A stretch of 64,000 nucleotides of DNA from an uncultured virus (IMG/VR IMGVR_UViG_3300030044_000012) (IMGVR_UViG_3300030044_000012); one strand, 5' to 3'; positions 1-52,874 are shown, counted from the first letter of the stretch. A program made the numbers and translations. Notes: generated from the sequence alone by a model not told the origin.

Positions 1-556
1 AGGCGGAGGCAAGTTGCGTCACTGAGTTGCGTGCTGCGTCCTGCTGCCGCCAGATGAAATAGTTTTCGACCTCGATGTAATCGGGGATGGTGAAAGCACG
101 AGCATCGAATACAGCATCGGGAGTTTTACCAAACCACGGGGCTTCCTTCATTGAGTCAGACCATGATGCAGTTTTACTGAAGTGGGCTACGATGCGGTTG
201 AAGCTCATGGTAGCGATAGAAGCAGCTACAGAAACCCACTTCTGGAGGTTACCGTCGAACCATGATTGTGAGCCCTCGTCAGCGAAGTCGGTCGCCAGCA
301 CAGAAATTTCATCGCTCTGGACATAGGCGAAACGAGCCCCGGCGATTTCCTTGCAGAGAGCGATGGCCGCAGCATCCATGCAAGACATGAATTTGGTATC
401 ATAAGGCTTTGTGAGCCCCTTTGTCCATGTATGGAAGGCGCGACCATCTACACGAAGAATAGTGTAGGTGCGACGGGGCAGGAAGAACCGACTGCGGTCT
501 TCATACTGACCCTTCATTCTGTCTCCGAGTTTGTCGTTCTTTGGCTGGTTGCCCAT
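1..556 (-). CDS. tRNA(His) guanylyltransferase Thg1-like protein (3'-5' RNA polymerase), 3' end runs off the window
   Basis: Absent from the ORF track because it has no stop in the window. Manual translation from ATG 556: MGNQPKNDKLGDRMKGQYEDRSRFFLPRRTYTILRVDGRAFHTWTKGLTKPYD...YVQSDEISV...WFDGNLQK...FDARAF...NYFIWRQQDAARNS. RxDGRxFH, QSDEIS, FDAR and WRQxD are Thg1 hallmarks. Confidence 0.95.
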   Translation of the reverse strand, partial: MGNQPKNDKLGDRMKGQYEDRSRFFLPRRTYTILRVDGRAFHTWTKGLTKPYDTKFMSCMDAAAIALCKEIAGARFAYVQSDEISVLATDFADEGSQSWFDGNLQKWVSVAASIATMSFNRIVAHFSKTASWSDSMKEAPWFGKTPDAVFDARAFTIPDYIEVENYFIWRQQDAARNSVTQLASA

Positions 557-558
557 GG

Positions 559-874
559 TCATCTTTCGTTGTAAAGAGCGGAGATAACTTCATTGGAGGG
601 GAGAATCGGTTCGATGGAGTCGGTCACGTAAGGCAGGTCGTGCTCACCTTCACAGCACAGCCAAGAACCGTCCGTAAACACGATGCGAAGCAGCTTGAAT
701 GTCACGTCCCCAAACTCTGCGGTAAACCGACCTTCTACATCTGCAATTTCTCTTCCGCAGAGTTTAGACACTAGTATGCTCTGGAGTCCTGCACTCAGGA
801 TTTCCGGGCACAGACTCCCATTCGATTAAGCCTGCTTGGTCAGCTAACTCCAAAACCCTTTTAAACAGGATCAT
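559..874 (-). pseudogene. Hypothetical phage protein apparently split by a frameshift (36-aa ORF from ATG 874 overlapping the 70-aa ORF 771-559)
   Basis: ATG 874 overlaps the ABC ATPase stop and reads MILFKRVLELADQAGLIEWESVPGNPECRTPEHTSV*. The ORF VSKLCGREIADVEGRF...EGEHDLPY begins in another frame at the same spot (AGTGTCTAAA). Confidence 0.4.
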
Positions 875-1746
875 AGGCTCCTGAACTCCTGCTTAACCTG
901 AGCTACAAACGCCATGAAGTCCGGGCGAAGTACAATGTCAGGTTGCCACGCCAGATTAAGGTCAATCAGGTTGTAGCTCTTGACGATGTAAGAACCATCT
1001 ACCGTGGCTCCAGAAGCGTCGTGGTCGCGTCCAAGCATCCAGATGTGGTCAGCGACCGCACAAGCGGCGGTAACGTCGTGTGTGACAACGATAACCGTGT
1101 TCAGGTCGTCCATGTTGGCTACCTGCTGGATCAGATGAGCCGTCTTTTCGAGGTTGATTGGATCAAGGCCGGAGAAAGGCTCGTCCATCAGGATGTAATG
1201 TGAAGAGCAGAGAATCTGTTGGATGATAGCGATGCGCTGACGCTGACCCCCCGACAAATCTTTCGGGTAAGCTAACAACTTGTCGGCCAGACCGAACTCT
1301 GTGAGGTACGCCATGATTTTGTCCATAGCGACTGATTTTGACTTCTCGACCTGCATCGCGGCCAGCATCAAGTTGCCCTTGATGGTGCGATGATAGAAGA
1401 GAGGGTAGCTCTGTGCGACCACACCAACATCCCCGGCATGGACTTCACATTTATCTTGTGTACAACCCTCGCGGCCACAATGACAGTTGTTGATGTAGAC
1501 GTGTCCGCTGGTGGCTTTTTTAAGACCGGCAATGATGCGGAACAACTGCGTCTTACCGATGCCCGAGGGGCCAAGGAAACCAACGACTTGCCCCTTCACA
1601 ATGCGGTTGCCTTGAGCGTCCGCACGATCAACTACAATGTCCTGAATCTGAGCGTTGACGTTCTTCAGGACTTGACGGTCGTAGCTGAGACAAACGTTGT
1701 CGATGGTAAGCAGTGCTTGCCCGAGATGGTATTCCATGGTTGCCAT
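871..1746 (-). CDS. ABC transporter ATP-binding protein (NitT/TauT/SsuB-like)
   Basis: Walker A GPSGIGKT, signature LSGGQRQR, Walker B/D-loop ILMDEPFSGLD, H-loop VTHD. Start MATMEY at 1746 is coupled to the upstream stop. Confidence 0.95.
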   Translation of the reverse strand: MATMEYHLGQALLTIDNVCLSYDRQVLKNVNAQIQDIVVDRADAQGNRIVKGQVVGFLGPSGIGKTQLFRIIAGLKKATSGHVYINNCHCGREGCTQDKCEVHAGDVGVVAQSYPLFYHRTIKGNLMLAAMQVEKSKSVAMDKIMAYLTEFGLADKLLAYPKDLSGGQRQRIAIIQQILCSSHYILMDEPFSGLDPINLEKTAHLIQQVANMDDLNTVIVVTHDVTAACAVADHIWMLGRDHDASGATVDGSYIVKSYNLIDLNLAWQPDIVLRPDFMAFVAQVKQEFRSL

Positions 1747-1928
1747 TATCGTTTCCCTTTCAGAACGGCCCACGATGAACCGCATGGGGCCGTATCAAAC
1801 CCACAACTTCGGAGTTGACCAGCCACCCACTCAGCTACCTGTTCCCTTGTCTGTGTTTTGAAGTGGTCGCTGTGGCTGTGCATAGTCAACGCCATCTCGA
1901 ACATGATGTCAATCAGCTTCTGTTCCAC
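1746..1928 (-). CDS. Small hypothetical protein
   Basis: 60-aa ORF overlapping both neighbours in the operon. Confidence 0.6.
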   Translation of the reverse strand: MEQKLIDIMFEMALTMHSHSDHFKTQTREQVAEWVAGQLRSCGFDTAPCGSSWAVLKGKR

Positions 1929-2253
1929 GACGACGCCGCTCCACTCTTACATGAACTCGATGATAAATCGGTTCCGACTTCAGGGTTAAAACCCCATCAA
2001 TGCTAATCACAACATCGGGGTGCTTCTTACAGAAGTAGTTCAACACAGTCTCCAGATTTTCAGCGACCTGTTTCGCGACTTCGGCTCGGTATTCAGCGAA
2101 GAACTCCCCCTCGGTTCTCATGGAGGGAGGCCAATCCCCTAACGTGTAGCCGTAAATCTCAGCGGTGTCTCCACCGTAGTTATTGGTTCCCTCATAGGCT
2201 TTGGTCAATTGGTGCCAGAGGTCTAAAGCCTGTTTCACAGACATGGAAAACAT
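1909..2253 (-). CDS. Hypothetical protein
   Basis: ORF track 1909..2436. Start moved to MFSMSVK (2253) to avoid overlap with the permease. Confidence 0.6.
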   Translation of the reverse strand: MFSMSVKQALDLWHQLTKAYEGTNNYGGDTAEIYGYTLGDWPPSMRTEGEFFAEYRAEVAKQVAENLETVLNYFCKKHPDVVISIDGVLTLKSEPIYHRVHVRVERRRRGTEAD

Positions 2254-2260
2254 TAGATGC

Positions 2261-3037
2261 TCATTTCTCTGCGTATGGGCAGAACAGGTTCTTCGTGACG
2301 CCGATAGCATAGTCCTGACCGACGCCAAGGATGAGAATACAGAGTTGAATTGCCATGATGTCGCCGAACCGGGCGTGCTTCTGCATAGTTTGAAGTACGG
2401 TGCCAACACCACCCTCGGAGAACACCACCGATTCAACCATGGTGAGCATCATCCAGCCCATGGCAGCAACCGTGCGGAGCACGTCGAATACTTTGTCAAT
2501 CTGGCCGAGGACGACTACTTCCCACACCACACGCCAGTCGCCCATACGCAAGGTACGAGCTAGGTCGTACTGCTCCTGCGGGATGGACTTGATAACATCC
2601 AGCATCGAAGTGATGAACCACACGCTGATAGAGAAGGTCAACATCGCGACCTTGACGGTGTGCGGGTTGGCAATCGCCACAGCGAAGGCAACTGAGAGCC
2701 CTGCCATTGACAAGAACCGGAGGTAAGTGGACATCATTACAACCGGCTTGAAGATAGGAACTACCGAGAGGTATGACAGTCCGAGAGAGATAACAATCGA
2801 CCAGAGGATGGCCTGAAGGTTCAGCATGTAGCTGATGATAAGTTGGGCACCAAGTCCCGCTGTCCACTGGTCTTGAAAGCAAGACAAGACCTCTGAAGGG
2901 TTAGGCAGCAGCGGTGAGGGGCTAAGCACCCAAGCTAGAGTGAGAGCCGCCACTGTCCCGGTCATGAGCATGAGAAAGGTTCTCTTGCTTGTAACTTTGA
3001 GCGGCGATACAAAACCAAAAACTTCTGTCGCGGTCAT
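2261..3037 (-). CDS. ABC transporter permease (NitT/TauT/SsuC-like)
   Basis: About six hydrophobic helices, EAA-like loop IPQEQYDLARTLRM, and WMMLTMVE...GGVG motif. Confidence 0.9.
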   Translation of the reverse strand: MTATEVFGFVSPLKVTSKRTFLMLMTGTVAALTLAWVLSPSPLLPNPSEVLSCFQDQWTAGLGAQLIISYMLNLQAILWSIVISLGLSYLSVVPIFKPVVMMSTYLRFLSMAGLSVAFAVAIANPHTVKVAMLTFSISVWFITSMLDVIKSIPQEQYDLARTLRMGDWRVVWEVVVLGQIDKVFDVLRTVAAMGWMMLTMVESVVFSEGGVGTVLQTMQKHARFGDIMAIQLCILILGVGQDYAIGVTKNLFCPYAEK

Positions 3038-3336
3038 GAAGCCCTCGCGTGCTTGAACACCTTAGCGAATTCCTCTGGTCGCTCAGCGTACTCCGCCAAG
3101 GTCTTCTCTCCCTTTGGAGTTATCCACCAAACCGCGTCTTTCGCCCCGTTGTTTCCAACGTGTTCGCCGCGAAGTTTAAGAGCACTAAGTGCCCAGCCAA
3201 CTTCGTACTTGATGGTGTGTTCAGTGGCTGTTGGATACATCTTGTGGATTGCGTCCTTGATAGCCTGACGCTTGGCACATCCGCCGAAAACAGCCAGAAC
3301 CTGCAAAATGGTGATACCAAAATCCCAACGTTTCAT
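3034..3336 (-). CDS. Stand-alone Mrr N-terminal-like winged-helix protein
   Basis: ILQVLAVFGG...EVGWALSALKLRG...VWWITPKG pattern typical of Mrr_N; SD GAGGGG before ATG 3336. Confidence 0.65.
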   Translation of the reverse strand: MKRWDFGITILQVLAVFGGCAKRQAIKDAIHKMYPTATEHTIKYEVGWALSALKLRGEHVGNNGAKDAVWWITPKGEKTLAEYAERPEEFAKVFKHARAS

Positions 3337-3448
3337 GGTCCCCTCAAGGATAGGGGAGGGTTTACCCCTCCCCCTGTATGGCTGCAACCAAGCCGGGTCG
3401 CTGCCAATCTAGTAGCTACCAAAAAGAATGACTTTCAAACTCTTTGGT

Positions 3449-4135
3449 ATGGACAACTTTTACGTGTACCAATATCTCAGAGAAGTAGATTCCGCCAACG
3501 GTGCGGCGGGTACCCCCTATTACATTGGCAAAGGCCGTGGCAAAAGAAAAACCTCAACCTCTCGAACAACACCGAAACCAACTAACCCGAAGTGTATCAC
3601 TCTTGTTGCTGAAAACCTCAGTGAGGCGAAAGCATTTGAACTTGAGAAGAAGCTAATCTCCGAGTACGGTCGCATTGATACCGGCACCGGCTGTCTTAGA
3701 AACTTTACCGATGGTGGAGAGGGTAACACAGGGTTCAAACCCTCTCCCGAACTGCGTGCCCTTTGGAGTGCCCAACGTAAAGGTAACCAACGCCTACTCG
3801 GATTCAAGTTCAGTGAAGAATCCAAAAAGAAAATGAGCGATGCCCGTAAAGGAAAAAAACGGTCTGCTCAATTCTGTGAAAACCTCAGTAAGGCACTCAC
3901 CGGAATTAAAAAATCACCAGAGACCTGCAAGAACATCAGTCTTGCCAAGGTTGGTAAACCAACCAAACCTAACAAGGGCAGAACCGGGCAGCACTGGACA
4001 GAGGATGACAAGAAAAAACAAGCCGAGTTCAAGACAACATGGTGGTCAGACAAACAGAACAAAATGAAGCAATCTGAAGGGATGAAAAAGTGGTGGGCTG
4101 AGAGACGTAATGCAACCAGCCCACCCGTCTCTTAA
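3449..4135 (+). mobile_element. Free-standing GIY-YIG homing endonuclease with NUMOD3-type repeats
   Basis: FYVYQY...PYYIGKG, conserved E and N (EKKLISEYG...LRNFTDGGEG), then SEESKKKMSDARKG / SPETCKNISLAK repeats. Antisense to the surrounding operon. Confidence 0.9.
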
Positions 4136-5949
4136 TTTTGCCCTATCTGAATTATCTCCACCCTACGGTTCTTCTCCTTGTTAGCCGCTGAATCGTTGGG
4201 GGCTACAGGGCCTTGAGAACCGTGACCTTCAACTGACTTGAAGCGGGTGCTGGGGAACTCACGACCCGCTGTCTGTTGCAGATACTGCCGAACCGTTTCT
4301 GCACGAGACTTGGACAACGGGATGTTCACCGTGTCAGAGCCTGAGTTGTCGGTGTAACCGTCAATCTGCAAAGCCAGACTCTTGGCGATGCTCAATTTCT
4401 CGGCCAGTTCAGCAAGCTGCTGCTTACCCTCCGGCGTCAACTTAGCAGAGCCAGTGGCGAAGCCAATGTGTACAGCATCCTTGCTGACCTGCGTACCCTG
4501 TGCGACTTCAGTCGAGTAGTCCACCTCTTCAGCCGGTGCCGATTGTGTACCTGCGTTGTTCAGCAAGTCCTGAGCCGACCGAATGAAGGACGTATCCACC
4601 GCATCCTTGTATGCCGGGATGGGGTTCTTCTTAGGGTCGAACAAAGTTGGATACTGCTCCACGTCGATACGAGCGAATGTCTCGTATGTGGCCTTCATGT
4701 TGTTCCCATAACCATCCGCCAAACCAAAATACTGAAGGTCGTCCTGAAGGTTGAATACAGCAGAACCACCGAGAGGCTGACTTGTTGCTTTGTCGCGTAC
4801 GCCCTTGGCATAGTTGAACCAGTAATCGGCTGTCTGGTCGTTGTAGACTTTGGTAGCGATTTCAGATGCCTTGTGCAGAGCCGCATCATACGCCTTGATT
4901 TGGTCAGAGGCTGTAAACGTTGCAGCCAAAAACCCAGTAACTTCATCGCGATTGGCATTGACGAACTTGTCGAGTGCAAGCAACACGTCGGGCATCTGTG
5001 CGGAGTATTCCTTGGACGAGATGATCTTCGCCGTACCAGACACACCATGCACAGCTTGTTCGTCACCCGGCGTCCAAGTCACGACACCATCCGGGCAGAC
5101 CTGTACAGTCTTACCATCGGGTTTGCCGTCGATGACTTCCTTACGTGACTCGCACTTATGCGGAATGTAAACATCGGTGACGGCCTTGATGTAGTCGTCG
5201 TCCGGGGCTGAAATCCAGTTCACCGCAGTAGGGTCATAGGTAGTCAGGTCAGGGTTGTTCTTGAGGTTGTTAAACCCCTCAAAAGCCAAAGCAATGTTCC
5301 AGTCACCGTCACGAATGACGCCAACGATAGTTTTGCCCAGCATAGATTTTGGGCTGTCTTTCCACTCCGCAGGACCGAGAAGGGCATCCTCACCATTGGA
5401 GCGACCGACAGCACCGTAAATCTTCAACTTGACGCCAAGTTTCTCCAACTGTGGGTCGAGGTCGGCAAGCCACTGACCAGCAGAGTCCCCCATGACAAGA
5501 ATGCCAACCACACCTGAGGTGCAAGTCTGGTCACCATCATGCAACTGCTTCGCACAAGCCAGAAGGTCTTTCTTCATCTGGTCGTTCGAGTCCTGCCGCG
5601 TGATGTGCAGGTTAACACCAAACTTCTCCATCAGAGAACCGGAAGTAGTGTCAGCCCCACCATTGGCGAGGAACACAGAGTTCTGCGCGTTCCACTCCCA
5701 CGCCTCGATGGGGAATGCGTTCGCGGAGATATGGACTGCACTGGTAGACGGGTACGGAAGTGGGGCCACACCCTGCACCTTCGCGTCTTCCTGCTTGGGC
5801 AGGTTGACCTTTGACGCGGTAACAGACTTCAAGATGCCCGGTGTGGGGATCAGACCATGTTGCATCGCGGTCCGAAGACCGAAGACAACAACAAGGACGC
5901 CTATGATTACCAAGAATGCCTTGGCTTGTGGTTTGATTCGAGTTGCCAT
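4132..5949 (-). CDS. Membrane-anchored periplasmic substrate-binding protein (PBP type II, NMT1/THI5-like) fused to a C-terminal OmpA-like peptidoglycan-binding domain
   Basis: N-terminal TM helix; central alpha/beta region (RSNGEDALL, WTPGD, QMPDVL); C-terminal OmpA_C motifs FATGSAKL, IDGYTDNSG, LSKSRAETVRQYL, GHG..PVAPN, NRRVEI; clustered with the permease and ATPase. Confidence 0.88.
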   Translation of the reverse strand: MATRIKPQAKAFLVIIGVLVVVFGLRTAMQHGLIPTPGILKSVTASKVNLPKQEDAKVQGVAPLPYPSTSAVHISANAFPIEAWEWNAQNSVFLANGGADTTSGSLMEKFGVNLHITRQDSNDQMKKDLLACAKQLHDGDQTCTSGVVGILVMGDSAGQWLADLDPQLEKLGVKLKIYGAVGRSNGEDALLGPAEWKDSPKSMLGKTIVGVIRDGDWNIALAFEGFNNLKNNPDLTTYDPTAVNWISAPDDDYIKAVTDVYIPHKCESRKEVIDGKPDGKTVQVCPDGVVTWTPGDEQAVHGVSGTAKIISSKEYSAQMPDVLLALDKFVNANRDEVTGFLAATFTASDQIKAYDAALHKASEIATKVYNDQTADYWFNYAKGVRDKATSQPLGGSAVFNLQDDLQYFGLADGYGNNMKATYETFARIDVEQYPTLFDPKKNPIPAYKDAVDTSFIRSAQDLLNNAGTQSAPAEEVDYSTEVAQGTQVSKDAVHIGFATGSAKLTPEGKQQLAELAEKLSIAKSLALQIDGYTDNSGSDTVNIPLSKSRAETVRQYLQQTAGREFPSTRFKSVEGHGSQGPVAPNDSAANKEKNRRVEIIQIGQN

Positions 5950-6003
5950 ACGATGTTCCTCAATCCTTTCGAGATTGTACTGCGGTTGTGGTCTTTCGAC
6001 CCG

Positions 6004-7092
6004 TTACTTGAACGGGTCGAAATCGTCGGTCTTGGTGCTGGCAGCGGCTGACGCAGCCCGTGCCACAGGGACAGAAACTCCCGGAAGCTGGATAAAGTCG
6101 GCTGCTGAAGGCTGAGAGCCAGCGGTGAGAAGCTTCTGGCTGAACTCAGCAAACTGCTGCCGTGCCAGTTCGGCGTTCGCCCCGGATTCGAGACTCTCGT
6201 CGGTCATAAGCTTGTCGGTGAAACGGCTGAACTCACGAATCTGACCCAAGGTCTGAGCGGTATCCTGCTCAAGGAACTCAAGAGCCATATCAACCATCTG
6301 CAACTGTTCAGGCTTGCCGCGAAGCAACTGCTGTCCGACACTCAAGGTGCTCTTAGCATCCAGAATCATGCTGCGTTGTTCTGCAAGGAAGTCCACCTTG
6401 AATGATGTCCGCTGAATCTTTGCGTCAGCAAGCTGCGACCAGTTTTGAAACGTGGTCAACAGATGCTTCGTATCAGCTTCCAACGCCTGAAGCTGCTTGA
6501 CACCCTGCAACAGGAGACCAGCCTTTTCCGCGTTAGTCTCGGATGCAAGTTGTAGCTGCTGCTTCTGCATGGGATCAGTGAGCGCAGCCGCTCGTTGAGC
6601 CGCTTGCTGTGACATGGCGTACGCCTTCTGAGCCTCCGTGTTCTTTGCCGCGATATTACGCTGCAACCGCTCCTCGGAGCCTGAGAACCTCTCAACCGTC
6701 CCATCGAGAGTAGCCTTCTCCTTCTTCATGTCGTCAAGGTTGTTGCGAAGGATACCGATAGGGTCGATGGTAGTGTATGTCTGGGCGACCGCTCGTGAGA
6801 GACTTTGAAAAGCGTTCTTGATTACCACACGAACCATTGTAAACGGGGGTATGCCAAAAGCAACCATGGCGATGAGAACTAAAGCCCCAGCGTAGATGGA
6901 TGCCAGCAAGGTGTCGGCCAGCGTGGTCAGGATAAATGGGATGATCGCTCCCCAAAAGATGAAAAGGGCGACAGCGGCAGCGGCAATGCCGAGACCGAGG
7001 AGGAATCTACCCGCCCCACCTTCCGGTCGTTCCCAAAAGGTCTTTGGTTTGAATCCCTGTGGGATTCCAGAGGTACTTGGTATGATTGACAT
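6004..7092 (-). CDS. Two-TM membrane-anchored PspA/IM30-like coiled-coil protein
   Basis: Two N-terminal hydrophobic segments, then IDPIGILRNNLDDMKKE...EERLQRNI, resembling the PspA 'EDP..L...I.DM' start, then a long heptad coiled coil. Confidence 0.65.
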   Translation of the reverse strand: MSIIPSTSGIPQGFKPKTFWERPEGGAGRFLLGLGIAAAAVALFIFWGAIIPFILTTLADTLLASIYAGALVLIAMVAFGIPPFTMVRVVIKNAFQSLSRAVAQTYTTIDPIGILRNNLDDMKKEKATLDGTVERFSGSEERLQRNIAAKNTEAQKAYAMSQQAAQRAAALTDPMQKQQLQLASETNAEKAGLLLQGVKQLQALEADTKHLLTTFQNWSQLADAKIQRTSFKVDFLAEQRSMILDAKSTLSVGQQLLRGKPEQLQMVDMALEFLEQDTAQTLGQIREFSRFTDKLMTDESLESGANAELARQQFAEFSQKLLTAGSQPSAADFIQLPGVSVPVARAASAAASTKTDDFDPFK

Positions 7093-7128
7093 GTGTTGCC
7101 TGTATCCCTTCTGTTGGATGGTTAGAGG

Positions 7129-7839
7129 TTACTTCAACATCGCAGCGTACTGAAGCTTTTGGGCATCAATTTCTGCCGCACGACGCTGAAGAGCCGAGTT
7201 GAAGCCGGAATGTGTACGAGCAGACTTTGCCTGAGCATCAGACAATTCATTCGCAACCTGCTGCTGCTCTGTTTGAAGAGAAGCAAGCTGGTTTTGAATG
7301 TCAGTGAGACGCTGAGTACGAGCGGTGATTTCTTTGGCTTCAAAAGCAGCGGCCTTCGTCTTGAAAGACTCTTCCGCTTGTGACAGTGAAGCCTTCAGAG
7401 AATCGAAGACGGCGAGGATGGCGTCTTCGCTCACATTGGCCTGAGATTTGGCAGTGGCGACAGCAGCCTTGAACAACATCTGCCGATCAGTGATGAGTCC
7501 TTGTAGGGGGACGACAAATCTCTGAATAGTCACCGCGATTTCAGATGCATCAAAGTTTGTCTTGTCTAGGAGCTTCTGATAGAACTCCTCAGCTTCAGGC
7601 CCAGCCGGTACGGCGGAGTTCACGAACGACGAGAGAGAGACGGGGGCTGCGGTCGCCGGAACAGGGGCAACTGCTGCGGTTGTATTCCCAAAACTAAAGG
7701 TAAATGGAGCCGGTGCGCTGGCAGCAGGGGTGAGTGGGATTGCTGTGGAGGTGGCGTGGGTGACCGGATCAGGGGTTTCGTCTATGTCAACGACCAGCCC
7801 CTTAAGGCCATCCAGAAAACTATGATGCTTATCGCTCAT
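7129..7839 (-). CDS. Soluble coiled-coil protein with Pro/Ala-rich linker; first gene of the envelope module
   Basis: Start MSDKHHSF at 7839 with SD AAGGGA; C-terminal Gln/Ala-rich coiled coil. Confidence 0.8.
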   Translation of the reverse strand: MSDKHHSFLDGLKGLVVDIDETPDPVTHATSTAIPLTPAASAPAPFTFSFGNTTAAVAPVPATAAPVSLSSFVNSAVPAGPEAEEFYQKLLDKTNFDASEIAVTIQRFVVPLQGLITDRQMLFKAAVATAKSQANVSEDAILAVFDSLKASLSQAEESFKTKAAAFEAKEITARTQRLTDIQNQLASLQTEQQQVANELSDAQAKSARTHSGFNSALQRRAAEIDAQKLQYAAMLK

Positions 7840-7942
7840 GAGTATCCCTTCCGAAGCGAAGTAGAATGAAGTGGACTTAGTGTACCACAACGCTACTCGC
7901 CCGTGTGACGCCTTAAAACAACTCAAGGCTCACAGTGCTTGT

Positions 7943-7985
7943 AGTGTACCAGACTCTGGAATATTTTAGCTAGTATTTTTCTTAG
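7943..7985 (-). promoter_or_regulatory. Class A promoter (TAGCTA-N18-TACACT) upstream of the envelope module
   Basis: One of eight copies with the same 18-nt spacer and an A-rich upstream tract. Confidence 0.75.
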
Positions 7986-8419
7986 AAAATGTAGGCGAGG
8001 GTGAGGGTGTCTTCATCGAGCACCTTAAACTCTTGCAATTCTGCGGTTTTCGAGATAACACCGCAACGCTGCAAATATTCAAAAGGTGGGATGAAAGTTT
8101 CCAGCAAAGTGAACACCTTAGCGTAGGGAAGGAGGATACACATTTCTTCAGTGTAGGGTGGTTGAATGCCACAGGTGTGGAGTAAAAGCAGACTGCGTAA
8201 ATGCTGGGGTTCGGAGGTTAAATACGAGAGGCGGACTTTAACATAGCCTAGTTTTGAAGCCGCAAGGTCTGGCTTCCTTGCCGGAGCAATAGGTCGCCCT
8301 TCAAGCGGAGACTCTGACAGTTTGATAATCGGGTTGGTAGCCAAGGAGGTCTCCTTACTGAAGAAGTATGAATCACAAATTTTAAACTCGCGATGGTCCT
8401 CCAACCAGATGGCGACCAC
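7982..8419 (-). CDS. Hypothetical protein (an in-frame ATG at 8488 is separated from it by a TAG at 8435-8437)
   Basis: ORF track plus manual reading of the upstream frame. Confidence 0.6.
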   Translation of the reverse strand: MVAIWLEDHREFKICDSYFFSKETSLATNPIIKLSESPLEGRPIAPARKPDLAASKLGYVKVRLSYLTSEPQHLRSLLLLHTCGIQPPYTEEMCILLPYAKVFTLLETFIPPFEYLQRCGVISKTAELQEFKVLDEDTLTLAYIF

Positions 8420-21096: not shown

Positions 21097-24000
21097 CTAT
21101 AGCTCCTCAAGAGAGCCCCATTTGGAGGTTGTATCCAAGGGCTCGTCCTTCTTTTTAGTACCCGCTTTCTTTCCTTTTTGAAAGATCATTTGATAGTCTT
21201 TGTTGCCACGGGCCTTCTCAATCTGGCTACCTTCTAGGAAGGTCTTAACTCCAATGGACTTCACATGAGCCTTGAGCAGAGATATGTACTCCTCATCCGA
21301 GTTGCCAGCCTCCATACCAGAGTCAAGGTCAAGAAAAGCGTTGTCATCAAGGATACCAGCACTGTGGCTTTCCCCGAGGATTTTTTCAAAAACACCCTTT
21401 TTACCTTTGAGAGTTTCGATAGCATACTCATCGACCGTACCCTTCGCCACAAGAATGTGTAGAGTACAGGCGGAGTGAGGGGAGGCCATACGAACCATAC
21501 GACCCACAAGCTGAATAAGGTCACCCCACGACCATGGCAAATCAAGGCAGACTAAATGAGCGGCCTGTTGAAGGTTGATGCCTTCGATGCCAGCGGCGTT
21601 AATAACAATTAGGCTATGGTCGGGGCTTCCTTGAAACAGCCGTTTATTGTCATTCCGCTGCTTCTCATTCTCATTGCCGGTGATGCGGAGAAACTTACGG
21701 TTGGTGAAGTGCCCATCTTTGGTTAACTTCTCCAGCCGGTCGATCCACATTTTATACTTTGTGAAAACGATGACCTTTTCACCTGCGAGGTCACCATCCA
21801 GCATGTCCAGCAATGCCTCTTCCTTGGGGCTCAGCTTGGTCGTGTAGAAGTCCTTGAGATTGGCGGGGTCTAGGAGGCCCGGATGGTTCGCGACAAGCTG
21901 CTGTACGCTCAACTGGGTCATCATGTTGGTTACATCACGTTCGCACTCGTGAAGGTCACCAGAAGCATCCTTAATGAGCGCCGGGGGCAGGATAAACACC
22001 CCATTCTTGATGTCCTCAAGAAGATCAATCTGCTGGTCGGTAAGGTCGAGTGGGTGGTATACAGTCGAGAGACGGGGCAGGGGCTCCTTCACCTGACGCT
22101 GGCTACGGCCAAGAAAGAAGGGACGAATACCCGCCTTGAACTTGGGGATGTTCTGATAGCCGACGAGCACCATCTTCTTACGGCCAGCCCCGATGTACTG
22201 AGGACGCATAATGCAAAACTCTTCCACAAACTCAGGCATCAAACCAAAGGGGCAAATGCCAAGAGCCGTTGCGACAGCATAGAATTCGTTGAGGGAATTC
22301 TTCATGACTGTAGCCGTCAACCCCCACACCCTGTCAGCCTGACGAGATATGCTGAAAACAAGATTACGGATGGCGGTTCCTGTGCCTTTGAACTTGTGGC
22401 ACTCATCAAAGACAAGGATCAACCGTTCCTTATTCTTCTTGAATATATTAGTAAAGAATCTTACATCCTGACTTTCAAGTTCCTTCCCATTCTTAACCGG
22501 GTTGCCTTCAGAATCAAACTGCCCCTTAACTTTCTTACGGGTGCCTTTGATGGAATCATACTTAACAATCATCACGTCCTTCTTGTCCCCGCTGAAGAAA
22601 CGTTCCATCTGAGCGTACCGGGCCTCGGATGATCCCAGCCCTTGGTATTTATCCTTCATGACGAACGGGCGTAGATGACTGAAACGTAGGAACTCGTCTC
22701 TCCACTGGTACGTGTTATGTGTGACGATGTGCCCGTCAGTTACGTACAGCCCGCGTTTTGCTGATGTGCTAATGCATTGAACGGTCTTCCTGCCGAGTAG
22801 CTCCACACTCTTTATAGAGCGGCACAGTTTGGGTAGGCTCCACTTGCTGGCCTTACGTGTAAGGTAGAAAGGGTTGAAAGGAGTTTGAATGGTCACAACC
22901 CATTTCGGGTAAGCACTTAAAATGAGTTGGGGTTTGCCTCTAACTTCAGTTTTGCTTACTTTGGGGGTCTGAGGAGTTGGTTGTATAGCTACAATCCCAC
23001 CTAGTGAGCGTGCAAGGGAAACTACATCATCCCTAAGCCCCACTGAAGTGGTATGAAAAGTACATTGCCCTGAATCGCTGCACGACCCATCCGAATCCAT
23101 TAAACCCCTGAGTAGTCCAATTCGATTCTCCACCGAGCTTCTAAGGTAACTTTCAGGTATGCGCTTATTTGGAGATTTATGCCCGAAGACGCCAATCTCT
23201 TTTAGAGAGTCCATGAAACCATTCATCCCCCCACAGTTGGATTGAACGATAGCGTACTGGCCTGAACCTCGCTCGGTTATGTAGTAAGGAGAGGGTAGTT
23301 CATCGGCTACCCGCGTTGGAATTTCCCTGTCTTCTGAGTAGAATATCGCTCCGTGGCGTAATGACCCATCTCCCAAAAGAATACCCAATGTATAGGCCGG
23401 AACGGGGGTATTTCCAATACTTGAAAATTCAACCGGAGAGGTAATCGGTAACCTGTAGCTATAAGCCGGAGCAGCTTTACCATACTTATAGGTGACGCCG
23501 TGCTTCAGTATCTCTTTCAGGCTTATCGTCTTAAATCTACCCGACCTCCTCAGATGGAGGGTCTGAACTTCCCAGAGGTGATCGGCGCAGCATTCCGTGG
23601 ACTCACCATCAGTGGTCGTGACACGGTACACATCTTTCTCGCCTTGAGGATGGACTCCCAAGACATGGGAAATACCTCCATCTGGGTCTACTAGGCGAGA
23701 GCCCACCGCCATGTCTCCCATGGACTTCCATCCTTCAGGGGTCAATATCTTAGCGTCCAAAGGCTGTGCTGTACTCTTGGTCGTAACGATAACTACCTTA
23801 TAGTCGGGCTTACGTTGCTTTAGCCACGCGGCGGCGGCAATACAGTCTAAACTTTTACCAAGTCCAACAGCATCCCCATTGATGAATTTATTCATCCGGG
23901 TTAGATGGTGAATCATTTGTAACTGGTATTGACGTAAATCAAGTGGGACGCCTGAGTCACAGTCGTTGTCGATGTCCCAAATTGTCTTGCGAAGGAGGTC

Positions 24001-24159
24001 AGGCCATTTAAAGGGGATGGGGTTGTGGATCACCCCAGCGTCATCCCGCTGAATGTCCCACTTACGAACTGCAAAAAGCCTCTCCAGTGTCTCCGGGTTA
24101 AGTCCCTTCAAAGTAGTGTAAGTAGTTATAAGGGGACACTGGACGGGCTCTTCGCTCAT
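21097..24159 (-). CDS. SNF2-family (SF2) helicase/ATPase containing an intein
   Basis: LRQYQ, GDAVGLGKS (motif I), FDECH (II), GLTAT (III), KVIVFT, GIEGINLQ (V), QLVGRMVR (VI). Confidence 0.93.
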   Translation of the reverse strand: MSEEPVQCPLITTYTTLKGLNPETLERLFAVRKWDIQRDDAGVIHNPIPFKWPDLLRKTIWDIDNDCDSGVPLDLRQYQLQMIHHLTRMNKFINGDAVGLGKSLDCIAAAAWLKQRKPDYKVVIVTTKSTAQPLDAKILTPEGWKSMGDMAVGSRLVDPDGGISHVLGVHPQGEKDVYRVTTTDGESTECCADHLWEVQTLHLRRSGRFKTISLKEILKHGVTYKYGKAAPAYSYRLPITSPVEFSSIGNTPVPAYTLGILLGDGSLRHGAIFYSEDREIPTRVADELPSPYYITERGSGQYAIVQSNCGGMNGFMDSLKEIGVFGHKSPNKRIPESYLRSSVENRIGLLRGLMDSDGSCSDSGQCTFHTTSVGLRDDVVSLARSLGGIVAIQPTPQTPKVSKTEVRGKPQLILSAYPKWVVTIQTPFNPFYLTRKASKWSLPKLCRSIKSVELLGRKTVQCISTSAKRGLYVTDGHIVTHNTYQWRDEFLRFSHLRPFVMKDKYQGLGSSEARYAQMERFFSGDKKDVMIVKYDSIKGTRKKVKGQFDSEGNPVKNGKELESQDVRFFTNIFKKNKERLILVFDECHKFKGTGTAIRNLVFSISRQADRVWGLTATVMKNSLNEFYAVATALGICPFGLMPEFVEEFCIMRPQYIGAGRKKMVLVGYQNIPKFKAGIRPFFLGRSQRQVKEPLPRLSTVYHPLDLTDQQIDLLEDIKNGVFILPPALIKDASGDLHECERDVTNMMTQLSVQQLVANHPGLLDPANLKDFYTTKLSPKEEALLDMLDGDLAGEKVIVFTKYKMWIDRLEKLTKDGHFTNRKFLRITGNENEKQRNDNKRLFQGSPDHSLIVINAAGIEGINLQQAAHLVCLDLPWSWGDLIQLVGRMVRMASPHSACTLHILVAKGTVDEYAIETLKGKKGVFEKILGESHSAGILDDNAFLDLDSGMEAGNSDEEYISLLKAHVKSIGVKTFLEGSQIEKARGNKDYQMIFQKGKKAGTKKKDEPLDTTSKWGSLEEL
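22714..23769 (-). mobile_element. Class 3 intein (352 aa) with LAGLIDADG homing endonuclease
   Basis: Begins AQPLDAKILTPEGW (Ala1); block B CCADHLW; LAGLIDADG motifs LGILLGDGS and LRGLMDSDGS; block F VQCIS; ends VTHN followed by Thr+1. Removal restores motif Ia VTTKST/TYQWRDE. Confidence 0.93.
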
Positions 24160-33006: not shown

Positions 33007-34320
33007 TTACTCACCCTTCCCTTCCACATAGTAACGGTCATCGCGGCCAAACGGACGTACAAGCTTCCACAGTGCCTCGTGCGCTTCAGCCTCACGCTCA
33101 TTGTAAAGCAGAATAGCCACCGAAACAATGTCATGGTTGAAGTCTTGAGTCTTCAACCAATCCTTACGAGCCACATCGTTCTTGAATCCGCCGTACACTT
33201 CGTTAAGGCCAGCGTCCTCCTCAAGACGACGCAGGAGTTCCACCGCCTTAATAGCTTTCACAAGGTTCTCATGAAACGCCTTGGTGAGCCCCCGGTGCCA
33301 CTGCTTGACCCATGCAGCGAACTCAGCAGGTACAGACATCGAGTGAGTCACCTCACCAGTCTTACGGTTGAATTGAGAGTCCATCGCCAACCAAGGATTC
33401 ATTGGAAGGGCGAACTCTTCCCAAATCATTTGAGGCGTGAGCCCCGTCAGAATTTTGTGAAGCCGCTTGTACTCCGACAACTTAATCTTGGCCTTAACCG
33501 GGGGCAGACCATGCCGGTTGACAGAGACAACATACCCTTCCTCTTCCTTCGAAGGGTCAGCCTCAGCAGTTGCAATGTCGATATCGAACTTCTCAACAAG
33601 GCGGCACCACGGCTTACCCGGCTTCAGGTTGCCATCAGCATCCATCGTCTTCGAGTATGAGTTGAGGTTCACCCACAACTCGTGCAACTGCTCGTAAGAC
33701 ATTTCCTCGCCGGTCTCGTTGTTCACCGCCGTCAACAAGCACAAACCCTCCCACTCATACGGCACCACGATGCGAAGATGCTTCGCGATGATTTCGAAAA
33801 TGAGAGTCCAGCCATTAGGCACAAAATCCTTGGCCGCACCGTACTTGACAAACTTCTGCCATTTCTCGGTCGCGAACTTCGCCCCATCCGATTCGAACGA
33901 ACCACGAGTTGAGATACCCCACTGGTCACCGTAGTTCCAAAGCACACCCATCTGGCCGTCCATCTTGCGAGTGATGGTCAGGGGACGCCGGAACACGTCC
34001 ATGTAGTTCTTGACGAACGCCTCATCCACCATTACGTTCTCTTCCACCACCGGGCGTCCCGAGGCGACACCTGCGATAATGGTGGAAGCCTGACCAAGGT
34101 TAAAAAATTTATACTGACTACGGGATACAACCTCATCCTTGTCATCGAGAATCAAGCCCCGGCACTGGCAAACCTCGTGGGGCCAGAATTGCTCAAATTG
34201 AGCACTTGCAGTGTAGTTGAATATACGGAGAGGGAGCGTTGGGTGTTTTCGCACGGAAATATAACCCGCGTCGATGTATTCTTTCAATTTGTCAAAGTCG
34301 AGCAAATTGTTAACCAGCAC
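33007..34320 (-). CDS. RNA ligase, T4 Rnl1-like
   Basis: FNYT, CRGLIL, KFFN, motif I KMDG, STRGSF, FEII, EEGYVV, KIK. Confidence 0.92.
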   Translation of the reverse strand: MLVNNLLDFDKLKEYIDAGYISVRKHPTLPLRIFNYTASAQFEQFWPHEVCQCRGLILDDKDEVVSRSQYKFFNLGQASTIIAGVASGRPVVEENVMVDEAFVKNYMDVFRRPLTITRKMDGQMGVLWNYGDQWGISTRGSFESDGAKFATEKWQKFVKYGAAKDFVPNGWTLIFEIIAKHLRIVVPYEWEGLCLLTAVNNETGEEMSYEQLHELWVNLNSYSKTMDADGNLKPGKPWCRLVEKFDIDIATAEADPSKEEEGYVVSVNRHGLPPVKAKIKLSEYKRLHKILTGLTPQMIWEEFALPMNPWLAMDSQFNRKTGEVTHSMSVPAEFAAWVKQWHRGLTKAFHENLVKAIKAVELLRRLEEDAGLNEVYGGFKNDVARKDWLKTQDFNHDIVSVAILLYNEREAEAHEALWKLVRPFGRDDRYYVEGKGE

Positions 34321-34961
34321 TGTGAACCTCTTCGATTTTCGATTCGTTCGTACCAGTCGGATAACCAGCGTCGAATCTCATCTAGGGTCAAATCATTCTT
34401 GACCACATTCGCCTTGTAGGTACAGAGAACTACATTTTCCCTCGTGTACCCTAACTCAGGTGAAATCTTATCAACCGACAACGACTGCTTACTGTGCCCC
34501 CTACCTCTGACCATTTGAAATGGTTCATCGGTGTAAAAACAGAGACCGTTCTGAAAATTGTACAGTGCTACCAAATACTCCCACGAGAGGTCGAACGGTA
34601 ACCCTTTCTTCTTAGCGGCGGATTTCAAAGTGGAAGCTTTGTGTTTCATGTAGGCTTCCAGTGAACTGTTTAACCGCTCTTCCGTGCGACGATACTCGCA
34701 AAATTTACACTGAGGCTCTCTGACTAATCCTCGCCCTCGGCGGGGCCGTTCAATGAAATCCTCTTCGTTTCGCTCATGTCCACAATTCGAACAAAGCGCC
34801 TTACCATTTACAACCTGCAAATTAAATAGGTGGCGACCGACCGCTTTGATACCATTCCTGCGACGGATACCACCTACTGTGCTTTTTGGAATACCCAACT
34901 CACGAACAATATCCCGGTCGTTCTTTCCCGCTGCAAGTAACTCTAAAACTTTGTCAACCAT
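34284..34961 (-). mobile_element. Free-standing HNH-like homing endonuclease with N-terminal HTH and zinc finger
   Basis: HTH (DIVRELGIPKSTVGGI), CSNC...CKFC, QNGLCFYT...SVDKISPELGYTRENVVLCTYKAN; sits between pnk and the ligase. Confidence 0.8.
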
Positions 34962-42983: not shown

Positions 42984-43757
42984 ATGGCTCTTCAGCTTCC
43001 AATACAAATCTACAGAGGGTTGCTTAAAAACCTCGCCGATGCCGTTGCAACGACACCGGGGGTTCCTCTTTGGACTACAGATAGTCAAGAGTTGTATGTC
43101 TCAGATGGGGGTTCCTTTGCTCGTGCGGCCTCGGATACTAAAGTTTGGACGGTAGCTACTGTATCTGCTCTTCGCACGACTATACCAGCCGCCGGAGGTC
43201 ACGCCCTGCTTGGTGACATCGTCGTCAACACAGGTAACAACAGCACGTACCTTTTAACTGGATATGCTAACTCAATATGGCAAGCAGCAACGGAATATGT
43301 CCTTGGGGACAGTCTCATTGATGCCAACGGAAACCTCCAGACTGTTACGACGGCAGGAACTTCGAGTGGGACCGAGCCCTCGTGGAACACATCAGGAACG
43401 ACGGCGGACAACGGCGTGACTTGGACTGAAAGCGAAGGGTTTGTAGTAATCGCCTCGGCCAGTGGGGGTGGAGGCGGTACTTACAGCCTACAGGTAGAAG
43501 TCAACTTTGGGCCGATAACAGGCGAGAATAGCAACACCAGTGTTACAGTAACGGGACAATCATGGGTAGCCACTGATAGCGTCATTATTGCAAACCCATT
43601 TGCGGGTGCGACCGATGACCACAGTGCTGATGAAGTTGTGGCTGAAGGTCTCACAGCGTACATCGAAAATGTTGTCGCAGGGGTTGGATTCGATGTTGTA
43701 GCTTATGCCCCCAATGGTACATGGGGCGACTACTTCATCAACGTAATTGGGATGTAA
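42984..43757 (+). CDS. Putative virion protein with carbohydrate-binding (CBM5/12-like) module
   Basis: WQAATEYVLGD...NGNLQTVTTAGTSSGTEPSW; N-terminal PLWTTDSQELYVSDG fibre-attachment-like motif. Confidence 0.6.
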   Translation: MALQLPIQIYRGLLKNLADAVATTPGVPLWTTDSQELYVSDGGSFARAASDTKVWTVATVSALRTTIPAAGGHALLGDIVVNTGNNSTYLLTGYANSIWQAATEYVLGDSLIDANGNLQTVTTAGTSSGTEPSWNTSGTTADNGVTWTESEGFVVIASASGGGGGTYSLQVEVNFGPITGENSNTSVTVTGQSWVATDSVIIANPFAGATDDHSADEVVAEGLTAYIENVVAGVGFDVVAYAPNGTWGDYFINVIGM

Positions 43758-43774
43758 CTGAGAAAGGTAAAAAC

Positions 43775-51977: not shown

Positions 51978-52874
51978 ATGGTTCATATCCGCCATTGCTT
52001 TTATTGCGGTAAGGCCCTCAGCCGTCGTCGAGCAACCAAAGACCATGTTATTCCACGGTCTAAGGGTGGCAGCAATTTGCAACAAAATATAGTGGATGCG
52101 TGTCGGAAGTGTAACTCTGAGAAAGGTAATCTACTCTTAGAGGAGTACCGGCAAGTTGTAGCCTATCGAGCCGGAATCGACCCCTTGGAATTTAAATTTG
52201 CAGGGGAAGTAATTATGCTTGAATCTAAGTATCAACGACAACTAGAACGACAGAAAAACAAAAGAGCCGAACGCAAAGCTGCTGGAATGTGTATGCGATG
52301 CGGAAAGCTTCCCGCTCAAGATAAACGAGTGGACTGTGCTGCTTGCTCTAAAATGGCGAATCAGCACCGAACTACAAAACGAAAAAGAGGTATCTGTTCT
52401 TATTGTTCCGAACAAAACCCTGTAATCTCTGGAACTGGGTGGTGCGGGAAGTGCTGCGAAAAAGCATCACGAGAGGGGAAGAAGGCAAGAAGTAAAAGAA
52501 AACAACTGGGAGTATGTATGAGTTGTGGAACTGCTCCAGTGATAGAAGGACAAGTGAACTGCGAAGGTTGTGCTACAGGTTATCGAGAGTACCATCGCCA
52601 GAACAAAAAAACCTGTTTTAACCATTATGGACACATCTGCACCTGTTGTGAAATCGAATTTGACGAACGATTTCTCACGTTAGATCACGTAAACAATGAT
52701 GGAGCGGCTCACCGCGAGGAGATAGGTCGTAGTTCATTATACAGATGGGCAATTAAGAACTACTTTCCAAATACACTTCAAACCCATTGCTGGGGTTGTA
52801 ACCAAGCTAAGGAAATCAATGGGGGTGTTTGCCCACATAAAGAGATGAAATCAAAAAACTGGAAGTTTGATTAA
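51978..52874 (+). CDS. HNH endonuclease with two HNH domains separated by CxxC repeats
   Basis: N-terminal CFYCG...DHVIPRSKGG.N...ACRKCN; three CxxC...CxxC units; C-terminal LTLDHVNNDG...HCWGCN. Confidence 0.85.
   Translation: MVHIRHCFYCGKALSRRRATKDHVIPRSKGGSNLQQNIVDACRKCNSEKGNLLLEEYRQVVAYRAGIDPLEFKFAGEVIMLESKYQRQLERQKNKRAERKAAGMCMRCGKLPAQDKRVDCAACSKMANQHRTTKRKRGICSYCSEQNPVISGTGWCGKCCEKASREGKKARSKRKQLGVCMSCGTAPVIEGQVNCEGCATGYREYHRQNKKTCFNHYGHICTCCEIEFDERFLTLDHVNNDGAAHREEIGRSSLYRWAIKNYFPNTLQTHCWGCNQAKEINGGVCPHKEMKSKNWKFD

Follow-up and report, generated by a model that had tools for sequence, protein, structure and literature searches.

PspA/ESCRT-III-type proteins are the main known bacterial membrane-repair polymers. 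Operons that place such proteins next to a transporter have been predicted in bacteria: the available sections of Ravi et al. 2024 (mSystems 9:e00847-23, PMC11237479) describe PspA/transmembrane (TM)-anchored 'Snf7' operons with an ATP-binding cassette (ABC) ATPase, a permease and a PBPB+OmpA protein, and propose that membrane remodelling is linked to solute transport. The example given there, OGG56892.1 from Candidatus Handelsmanbacteria, comprises PspA, PBPB+OmpA, permease, ABC ATPase, TM-Snf7 and a double AAA+ ATPase; according to the same sections (PMC11237479), the double AAA+ ATPase and the soluble PspA 'may' occur, and we do not take them as strictly defining the operon type. Complete ABC systems adjoin 15 of 189 huge-phage PspA genes, as reported in the available text of Yuan & Chen 2026 (bioRxiv 10.64898/2026.10.24.761521). 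Our full-text literature search for experiments on such a cassette found none, returning computational descriptions only. Here we analyse a five-gene cassette of this kind at positions 871-7985 of a 64,000-nucleotide stretch of DNA from an uncultured virus (IMG/VR IMGVR_UViG_3300030044_000012), a stretch that we call the window throughout.

The cassette contains all the core elements of the bacterial operon as set out in those sections, namely PBPB+OmpA, ABC permease, ABC ATPase and a TM-anchored PspA/Snf7-like protein, in a different order: in the window, the genes run coiled-coil partner, TM-anchored PspA-like protein, fusion of a substrate-binding protein (SBP) with an OmpA-like domain, permease and ATPase. 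It is a phage-borne member of an operon type already noted computationally. An earlier reading of this DNA, made from the sequence alone (the sequence-only reading), had pointed to similar bacterial gene sets without an established function, which is borne out by what can be seen of Ravi et al. 2024 (PMC11237479). The same reading had called the locus the best candidate for an undescribed system, which is too strong because both the bacterial operon type and the adjacency of ABC and PspA genes in huge phages were already in print, as far as the available texts go (PMC11237479; bioRxiv 10.64898/2026.10.24.761521).

All five open reading frames (ORFs) of the cassette were found intact on the minus strand, co-oriented as the sequence-only reading had placed them: the soluble coiled-coil partner (7129-7839, 236 residues from its ATG), the membrane-anchored PspA/IM30-like protein with two TM segments (6004-7092, 362 residues; hereafter the 2-TM protein), the SBP-OmpA fusion (4132-5949, 605 residues), the permease of the BPD_transp_1 type (2261-3037, 258 residues) and the ABC ATPase (871-1746, 291 residues). 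The reading frame of the partner is open up to a TTG at 7926, and homologues start at MSD..KHH, which points to the 236-residue ATG form; for the ATPase, alignments with homologues begin at residue 1 of the 291-residue form. We consider that this intact, phage-borne cassette most likely couples maintenance of the envelope to the uptake of a solute by a wall-tethered transporter, and we would give the following mechanism a probability of roughly one half. During infection the phage would install the importer in the inner membrane of the host, with its binding protein held at the interface between wall and membrane, while the membrane-anchored PspA-like protein and its partner would stabilise or reshape the same membrane from the cytoplasmic face. 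The envelope would thus be kept tight and energised, and the solute content adjusted, throughout the prolonged infection cycle of a phage with a large genome. The main rivals are that the cassette senses the state of the envelope and that it is a plain importer. The roles put forward in the sequence-only reading (a stabilised envelope, superinfection exclusion, delayed lysis, import of a metabolite or signal) are speculative, and our results do not tell them apart.

The SBP-OmpA protein consists of a signal-anchor helix (residues ~7-30), a TauA/NrtA-class binding domain (~75-465), a linker and an OmpA-like domain (~485-603). The N-terminal helix (7-30) is predicted to anchor or export the protein. 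The OmpA-like domain matches Pfam OmpA (PF00691) at residues 497-595 with 65.4 bits against a cut-off of 27.2, and OmpA-like domains were also matched in a profile search against PDB (E 3e-20). Foldseek aligned this part of the model with the TagL, OprF, Pal and OmpA C-domains at TM-scores of 0.8-0.9 by target. Its motif YTDxxG...LSxxRA is invariant in a seven-row alignment (A3) and nearly so in a 31-row alignment (A4), where T533, D534, S546, R549 and A550, all invariant in A3, are each kept in at least 90% of rows. The conserved Asp (D534) and Arg (R549) are presumably those that bind the peptidoglycan stem peptide, and the domain, with its score above the Pfam threshold and this Asp/Arg pair, is a predicted peptidoglycan anchor.

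The AlphaFold2 model of the SBP-OmpA protein (mean predicted local distance difference test score, pLDDT, 86.2) shows a two-lobe binding domain, for which Foldseek retrieved TauA (6ssy, TM-score 0.72 by target), NrtA (2g29), CmpA (2i48), a thiamin-binding SBP (4nmy) and Thi5, with E-values of 3e-9 to 7e-8 for TauA, NrtA, CmpA and the thiamin-binding SBP. The claim of a TM-anchored substrate-binding domain fused to an OmpA-like domain is therefore upheld, with a fold of the NitT/TauT class on one side and 65.4 bits for OmpA on the other. By sequence, the binding domain is found only in the fused form of ~600 residues (1482 matches), and closely related phage copies with 84-87% identity exist. 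Among its invariant residues in the A3 and A4 alignments are W84, E85, W86, D155, D214-W217, N231-D234 and W292. These folds bear on the possibility that the cassette is a plain auxiliary metabolic set, by which the phage would boost uptake of a sulfonate-, nitrate-, bicarbonate- or thiamine-precursor-like solute for its replication, the helical proteins merely inserting or protecting the transporter. The nearest folds of the binding domain are indeed those of uptake proteins, and the cassette lies among genes of nucleotide metabolism and replication. Against this, the binding domain matched no characterised SBP family by sequence in Pfam, NCBIfam or PDB profile searches, and we regard such a plain uptake role as doubtful, though worth keeping in mind.

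The permease and ATPase assignments hold as first proposed. The permease passes the Pfam PF00528 cut-off marginally (26.7 bits against 26.4), with a family that is conserved across all loci, and weakly matches the SaoP and NrtB permeases of NCBIfam; it is 53-62% identical to the copies in L003 (a 139-kb IMG/VR contig) and Acidobacteriota, and 31% identical to that of LR756500, a 462-kb, AT-rich uncultured huge phage. The ATPase matches ABC_tran (PF00005) with 88.8 bits (E 6.4e-25) and the PHROG 'ABC transporter' (1.1e-43), and keeps its Walker A (GPSGIGKT), signature (LSGGQRQR), Walker B (ILMDEP) and H-loop (THD) motifs. Its best NCBIfam matches are importer ATPases, none of them reaching an equivalog cut-off. 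The protein ends in a conserved C-terminal extension, L-x-L-A-W-Q-P, and is 40% identical to the LR756500 copy, LAWQP included. Together with the two-lobe SBP, the permease and the ATPase are the components of a type I ABC importer, and transport is the predicted activity. A Cys-rich insert in the ATPase places four Cys in 13 residues between Walker A and the Q-loop, at ~88-108 of the 291-residue form (101-121 of the 304-residue ORF); it is missing from the LR756500 homologue and might form a small metal-binding loop.

For the 2-TM protein, AlphaFold2 (91 sequences, pLDDT 77.7) predicts helices at 26-79, 85-109, 111-170, 174-254, 262-298 and 305-326, which amount to a long hairpin (111-170/174-254) and two further helices followed by a disordered tail, with a conserved D-x-D-x-F-K motif at the C-terminus. 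Hydropathy places an N-terminal hydrophobic TM hairpin at ~25-92, where the model draws one long helix (26-79). Three Lys or Arg residues precede the hairpin and three follow it, while the short loop that joins its TM segments has none; this suggests that both ends of the protein, and with them the helical domain, are cytoplasmic. The family is large, with 912 clusters at 50% identity for E<=0.001 and 596 for E<=1e-10.

The relationship of this family to PspA is a remote one. A Pfam search found no family in the 2-TM protein, and the window copy gave no PF04012 match at E<=1; the gathering threshold of PF04012 is not reached by the family. PF04012 is nevertheless the commonest sub-threshold Pfam match: at E<=1 it was found in 8 of 14 members of the family (best 1.8e-4), and at E<=0.01 in 13 of 91 (best 6e-5). 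In whole-genome searches, cassette homologues score 18-22 bits for PF04012 against a cut-off of 33.9. Five Acidobacteriota carrier genomes each also encode canonical PspA genes (115-135 bits), behind which the cassette protein ranks next for PF04012 in four of these genomes (E 1.6e-4 to 4e-3, HMM positions 22-145). Profile-profile alignment with hhalign gave 15% for the 2-TM family against five canonical PspA sequences and 68% (E 4.7e-5) against 34, or 61% in global mode, collinear over PspA 1-220, whereas the control with the coiled-coil partner against the same 34 gave 7%; the alignment pairs the most conserved motif of the family, DPIGILRN, with EDPEKML of PspA. The best Foldseek matches of the model were Vipp1 and PspA (best E 1.2e-3), and family profiles searched against PDB chains returned generic coiled coils only. 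PspA and Vipp1 bind membranes through an N-terminal amphipathic helix. No helix of this type was seen in the 2-TM protein, which has the TM hairpin in its place. Taken together, these results are consistent but modest, and support moderately that the cytoplasmic part of the protein is a remote PspA/IM30 relative. The proposal of a PspA-like coiled coil at 6004-7092 has moderate support from the hhalign and Foldseek results, with scores below the Pfam threshold.

The coiled-coil partner is laid out, in an alignment of 29 sequences (A6), as a short N-terminal motif that is hydrophobic and then acidic (SFLDGLKGLVVDIDE), a linker rich in Pro, Ala and Thr, and a C-terminal helical domain of ~130 residues. 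No Pfam, PHROG, NCBIfam or PADLOC family was found in it, and the ESM Atlas returned only unnamed clusters (Acidobacteriota, Bacteroidota, Uroviricota) and structural matches of low TM-score. It is the fastest-evolving of the five proteins, with 57-66% identity among Acidobacteriota against 78-86% for the other four, and in 49 of 50 bacterial loci its gene directly precedes that of the 2-TM protein. We considered whether the partner could be the 'soluble PspA' of the bacterial operon and dropped this identification because hhalign gave 2-7% against PspA, and no more than 2-10% with the comparison to the 2-TM family included. A complex prediction for residues 85-362 of the 2-TM protein with the partner, run without controls, scored 0.00 against a mark of 0.32, which weighs neither for nor against contact.

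These features of the helical pair and of the ATPase also bear on a role as an envelope-state sensor, in which the wall-pinned SBP would report a periplasmic or peptidoglycan cue, or the distance between wall and membrane, and ATP turnover would control assembly of the PspA-like polymer, in the way that other ABC modules transduce signals. One would not expect a nutrient receptor that diffuses freely to be tethered twice, as this binding protein is by its N-terminal anchor and its OmpA domain; genetically, the helical pair is tightly coupled to the ABC part; the conserved LAWQP extension of the ATPase could dock a partner; and both helical proteins bear short conserved terminal motifs on disordered linkers. 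On the other hand, the permease belongs to an ordinary type I importer fold family, the ATPase is closest to importer ATPases, the protein-protein contacts that such signalling would require are putative, and known ABC-type sensors use other permease families. We therefore hold a sensor role to be doubtful, though one of the main rivals, and prefer envelope maintenance coupled to uptake.

That the five genes belong together is best seen in other genomes. A scan of one genome per prokaryotic species, using an alignment of the 2-TM protein and narrow peptide patterns, gave 50 bacterial loci, all from Acidobacteriota metagenome-assembled genomes (MAGs; Terracidiphilus, other Acidobacteriaceae, Bryobacteraceae/Bryobacterales and Solibacteraceae) except one from an Anaeromyxobacteraceae MAG. 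By tblastn with the window proteins, 42 of the 50 carry the five genes in the same order; seven of the remaining eight are cut by the end of the sequence, and the last (L017) lacks a match to the first gene only. The flanks of these loci vary and hold ordinary chromosomal genes (SLT transglycosylase, ECF sigma factor, GH130, MFS, TonB-type receptor, CHAT), which argues that the five genes are a unit. Flank clustering found no further family in most loci, save a 133-residue four-TM protein.

The gene for this four-TM protein lies divergently upstream in 28 loci by clustering and in 30 by tblastn (one of them, L062, being a second fetch of the L028 region). These loci are all bacterial and mostly from Terracidiphilus (e.g. 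L010:6659-7060, minus strand); the protein has no Pfam family and was missing from the window and from all viral loci. In one Acidobacteriaceae MAG contig (L052), tblastn matches were partial, covering residues 209-359 of the 2-TM protein and 3-240 of SBP-OmpA, which suggests a disrupted copy.

The bacterial flanks matter for another explanation, in which the altered envelope would block a later injection (superinfection exclusion) or delay holin and endolysin and so time lysis. Circumstantially, a phage-carried module located in the envelope would suit such a role, and it was in the response to a phage secretin that PspA was discovered. The same cassette, however, stands in bacterial chromosomes among ordinary genes with no phage genes beside it, and PADLOC matched no system-specific defence model, giving generic MotB-domain (ZorB) and ABC-ATPase matches only. 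We think it improbable that exclusion or lysis timing is what the cassette is for.

Among viruses, scanning IMG/VR with the SBP-OmpA alignment yielded 36 loci; their contigs reach 529 kb, and two of the records are rated 100% complete by the collection. We searched the ORFs of 38 viral loci, two pairs of which are identical, with hidden Markov models (HMMs): all 38 have SBP-OmpA and the permease, and matches to the ATPase, the 2-TM family and the coiled-coil partner came from 37, 34 and 25 loci, respectively. Four or five cassette genes are present in 34 of the 38. Of the four without a 2-TM gene, two have no upstream DNA and two (L072, L091) carry other genes there. These two loci, with an ABC part and no helical pair, are what a plain uptake role would lead one to expect; the OmpA fusion and its linkage with the helical pair are, however, kept down to 33% identity, which is against it. 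Given the 42 of 50 bacterial loci and the 34 of 38 viral loci, the co-occurrence of the genes is real, and the sequence-only reading, which had linked the coiled-coil genes to the ABC genes, was right on this point.

In the 139-kb contig L003, the five genes are contiguous, with 51-69% identity to those of the window. In LR756500, tblastn against phage records matched the SBP-OmpA at 36% identity over 89% of its length, and this phage has five consecutive ORFs whose sizes and order are as in the window, the ABC parts being 31-40% identical. Its counterpart of the 2-TM protein shows weak N-terminal similarity, and its first ORF is alike in position and length with no detectable similarity.

The family was seldom found in the bacterial genomes sampled. 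In samples that include incomplete MAGs, with a family profile at E<=1e-10 and with the centre genome of each sample, a known carrier, counting as one match, the phylum of the Solibacteraceae carrier gave 1 match in 201 genomes (0 of 200 besides the centre), the family of the Terracidiphilus carrier 3 in 151 (2 of 150) and the phylum of the Anaeromyxobacteraceae carrier 1 in 151 (0 of 150). It was thus found in only 2 of the 500 other genomes searched (0/350 over two phyla, 2/150 in one family), unlike a common nutrient system, and this is a further point against a plain metabolic set. Ten diverse family representatives were all metagenomic, their longest contigs being 200-250 kb, and a further homologue search with profile A2 returned Acidobacteriota-type proteins only, adding no taxa.

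A FastTree phylogeny of SBP-OmpA was built with 52 rows (38 viral, the window and 13 of 45 bacterial sequences) and rooted at the midpoint only, which is arbitrary. Twelve Acidobacteriota rows group with two IMG/VR contigs in a shallow clade whose end branches measure 0.02-0.14. This clade is sister to the window and L003 (support 100), and both are nested in far more diverse viral sequences, among which the Anaeromyxobacteraceae row is also found. Between Acidobacteriota orders, four of the five proteins are 78-86% identical, which far exceeds the genome-wide likeness of such taxa and therefore points to recent horizontal spread. The pattern fits exchange between peat Acidobacteriota and their large phages, and it hints that phages hold most of the cassette diversity, a hint to be read with the arbitrary root, the narrow peptide patterns of the bacterial scan, the sampling of only two bacterial phyla and the possible misclassification of IMG/VR contigs in mind.

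A bolder form of this view would make the cassette a large-phage machine at heart, with its centre of diversity in huge phages and the bacterial copies as recent offshoots; the wall-pinned ABC module would not feed the cell but sense or energise the interface between wall and membrane and drive a membrane-anchored ESCRT-III-like polymer, with which the phage would reshape or reseal the inner membrane of its host. We think this unlikely as a whole.

The five genes of the window are not contiguous, since four extra ORFs, one of them antisense, break the cassette into three blocks. Between the SBP-OmpA gene and the permease sit two of them. The first encodes a GIY-YIG/NUMOD3 homing endonuclease that is not part of the cassette (3428-4135, plus strand; Pfam NUMOD3 1.9e-7, PHROG homing endonuclease 2.9e-14), and its gene is convergent with that of SBP-OmpA and overlaps the SBP-OmpA stop by 4 bases. 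The second (3034-3387, minus strand, 117 residues) has a weak, Mrr_N-like winged helix similarity (PF14338, E 0.0011, below the cut-off), and its stop overlaps the start of the permease. The other two, also on the minus strand, lie between the permease and the ATPase: one of ~114 residues (1909-2253), without a Pfam, PHROG or PADLOC family, and one of 60 residues (1746-1928), which abuts the ATPase start and has no family above threshold in the same three collections. None of the four had a tblastn match in any related locus, and the homing endonuclease is missing from the contiguous cassettes of L003 and of the bacterial loci.

Such insertions are common in the viral loci. All three ABC genes are present in 37 viral loci, and 20 of these have gaps of more than 350 bases with extra ORFs between cassette genes, mostly between SBP-OmpA and permease or between permease and ATPase, whereas the bacterial copies are tightly packed. 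A Pfam search of 21 inserted ORFs (19 viral and two from the window) found a DUF1003 protein (L086:9913-10320), a methyltransferase (L095:2614-3387) and a sub-threshold phosphatase (L091), and none in the others. The homing endonuclease of the window is one case of this common pattern: the cassette has been invaded by it and by three small ORFs with no damage to the five genes. Taken by themselves, four foreign ORFs, one antisense, in a copy that is sister to the Acidobacteriota clade could mean that the cassette is a passenger taken from an Acidobacteriota host, without a role in the phage and being broken up by mobile insertions. This we find highly improbable: all five ORFs are full length relative to their homologues and the ATPase motifs are intact, the similar insertions in viral loci lie between intact genes, and viral sequences as far apart as 33% identity still carry the cassette.

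The proposal that the five genes lie behind one promoter fared less well, as four ORFs intervene, one of them antisense, and the promoter itself is putative. The non-coding region upstream of the first cassette gene (7840-7985, minus strand) contains the proposed class A promoter (7972-7943), where a scan for the sigma-70 consensus found no site; the 30-mer at these positions occurs once in the window. TGGTACACT is present twice in the region, at 7951-7943 and 7887-7879 (minus strand), the copies being 64 bases apart, and the looser motif TGGTAHACT occurs four times in the window against 1.09 expected. A shared promoter class is not supported by the consensus scan and these motif counts.

Two peat metatranscriptome libraries from different studies contain contigs at least 99% identical to the locus. 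In the first library they fall on parts of the genes for the ATPase, the permease, the endonuclease, SBP-OmpA and the two helical proteins; in the second, on the beginning of the ATPase gene together with the small ORFs that precede it, on the endonuclease gene and on the first cassette gene. Contigs are missing for some stretches, e.g. 5390-6340, which is not evidence of silence. They give neither strand nor level and may derive from DNA carry-over, and are a weak hint that the locus is expressed.

The window as a whole is phage-type DNA, with genes for dCMP deaminase, thymidylate synthase, helicase-primase, RNA ligase, polynucleotide kinase, endonuclease VII, a clamp loader and HNH endonucleases. 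A contig of 310,335 bases encodes the exact 362-residue 2-TM protein, and DNA of the locus is present in many peat metagenome runs; a nucleotide search with window positions 800-8000 against a phage collection, and a tblastn search with the 362-residue protein against the same collection, gave no match. Elsewhere in the window we observed a Thg1-like tRNA-His guanylyltransferase gene (2-562, minus strand; Pfam 2.7e-27, PHROG 3.5e-61) that runs past the window start, and ARAGORN found no tRNA gene within the 64 kb. The two HNH endonuclease genes lie at 34284-34961 and 51978-52874. A 1020-residue protein (21097-24159, minus strand) with PHROG matches to primase/helicase-loader-like proteins and to helicases is probably a fused primase-helicase, and a 1390-residue ORF on the minority strand (43721-47893, plus) has no PHROG match at 1e-5.

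What the window adds to the published descriptions is mostly confirmation, in the form of one more intact, possibly transcribed phage copy, together with the observation that phage copies tolerate insertions between the cassette genes. New are the few finds of the family in sampled bacterial genomes, the shallow Acidobacteriota clade within diverse viral sequences and the locus fragments in two peat RNA libraries. The cassette bears on how PspA/ESCRT-III proteins are targeted and regulated beyond the classical Psp, Lia and Vipp1 systems, as it fixes a PspA-like protein in the membrane and couples this genetically with an ABC transporter tethered to the wall. Despite deep sequence divergence, the cassette is retained by large phages of peat and other habitats. 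If the envelope of the host is indeed maintained in this way through long infections, this would be a widespread phage strategy, and the cassette a compact system in which to study the coupling of transport, cell wall and membrane remodelling.

Compared with the bacterial operon, as far as the available sections of Ravi et al. describe it (PMC11237479), the window has no AAA+ gene within 871-7985, its partner lacks a PspA signal and the copy is carried by a phage. The available text of Yuan & Chen (bioRxiv 10.64898/2026.10.24.761521) does not mention the OmpA fusion, the TM-anchored PspA, the coiled-coil partner or Acidobacteriota. With PspA, IM30 (Vipp1) and LiaH (PF04012, the bacterial ESCRT-III superfamily), the 2-TM protein appears from its model to share the long helical hairpin and further helices, and it has in common with them a 'DP' motif at the start of helix 1 and a collinear profile alignment; it differs from them in scoring below the Pfam threshold and in having a TM hairpin instead of the amphipathic helix, and carrier genomes encode their canonical PspA genes separately from the cassette protein. 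With the NitT/TauT importers (TauABC, NrtABCD, CmpABCD, SsuABC) the cassette has in common the fold of the binding domain and the weak match of its permease to the NrtB/SaoP models, whereas its binding domain is ~390 residues long with insertions, is fused to OmpA and matches none of them in sequence, and no equivalog cut-off is reached. Finally, PF00691 and the YTDxxG...LSxxRA motif are common to the OmpA-like anchors of Pal, the OmpA C-domain, MotB, YiaD, YfiB and TagL/TssL; those anchors sit on a porin, a stator or a lipoprotein, while that of the cassette is the C-terminal module of an ABC binding protein.

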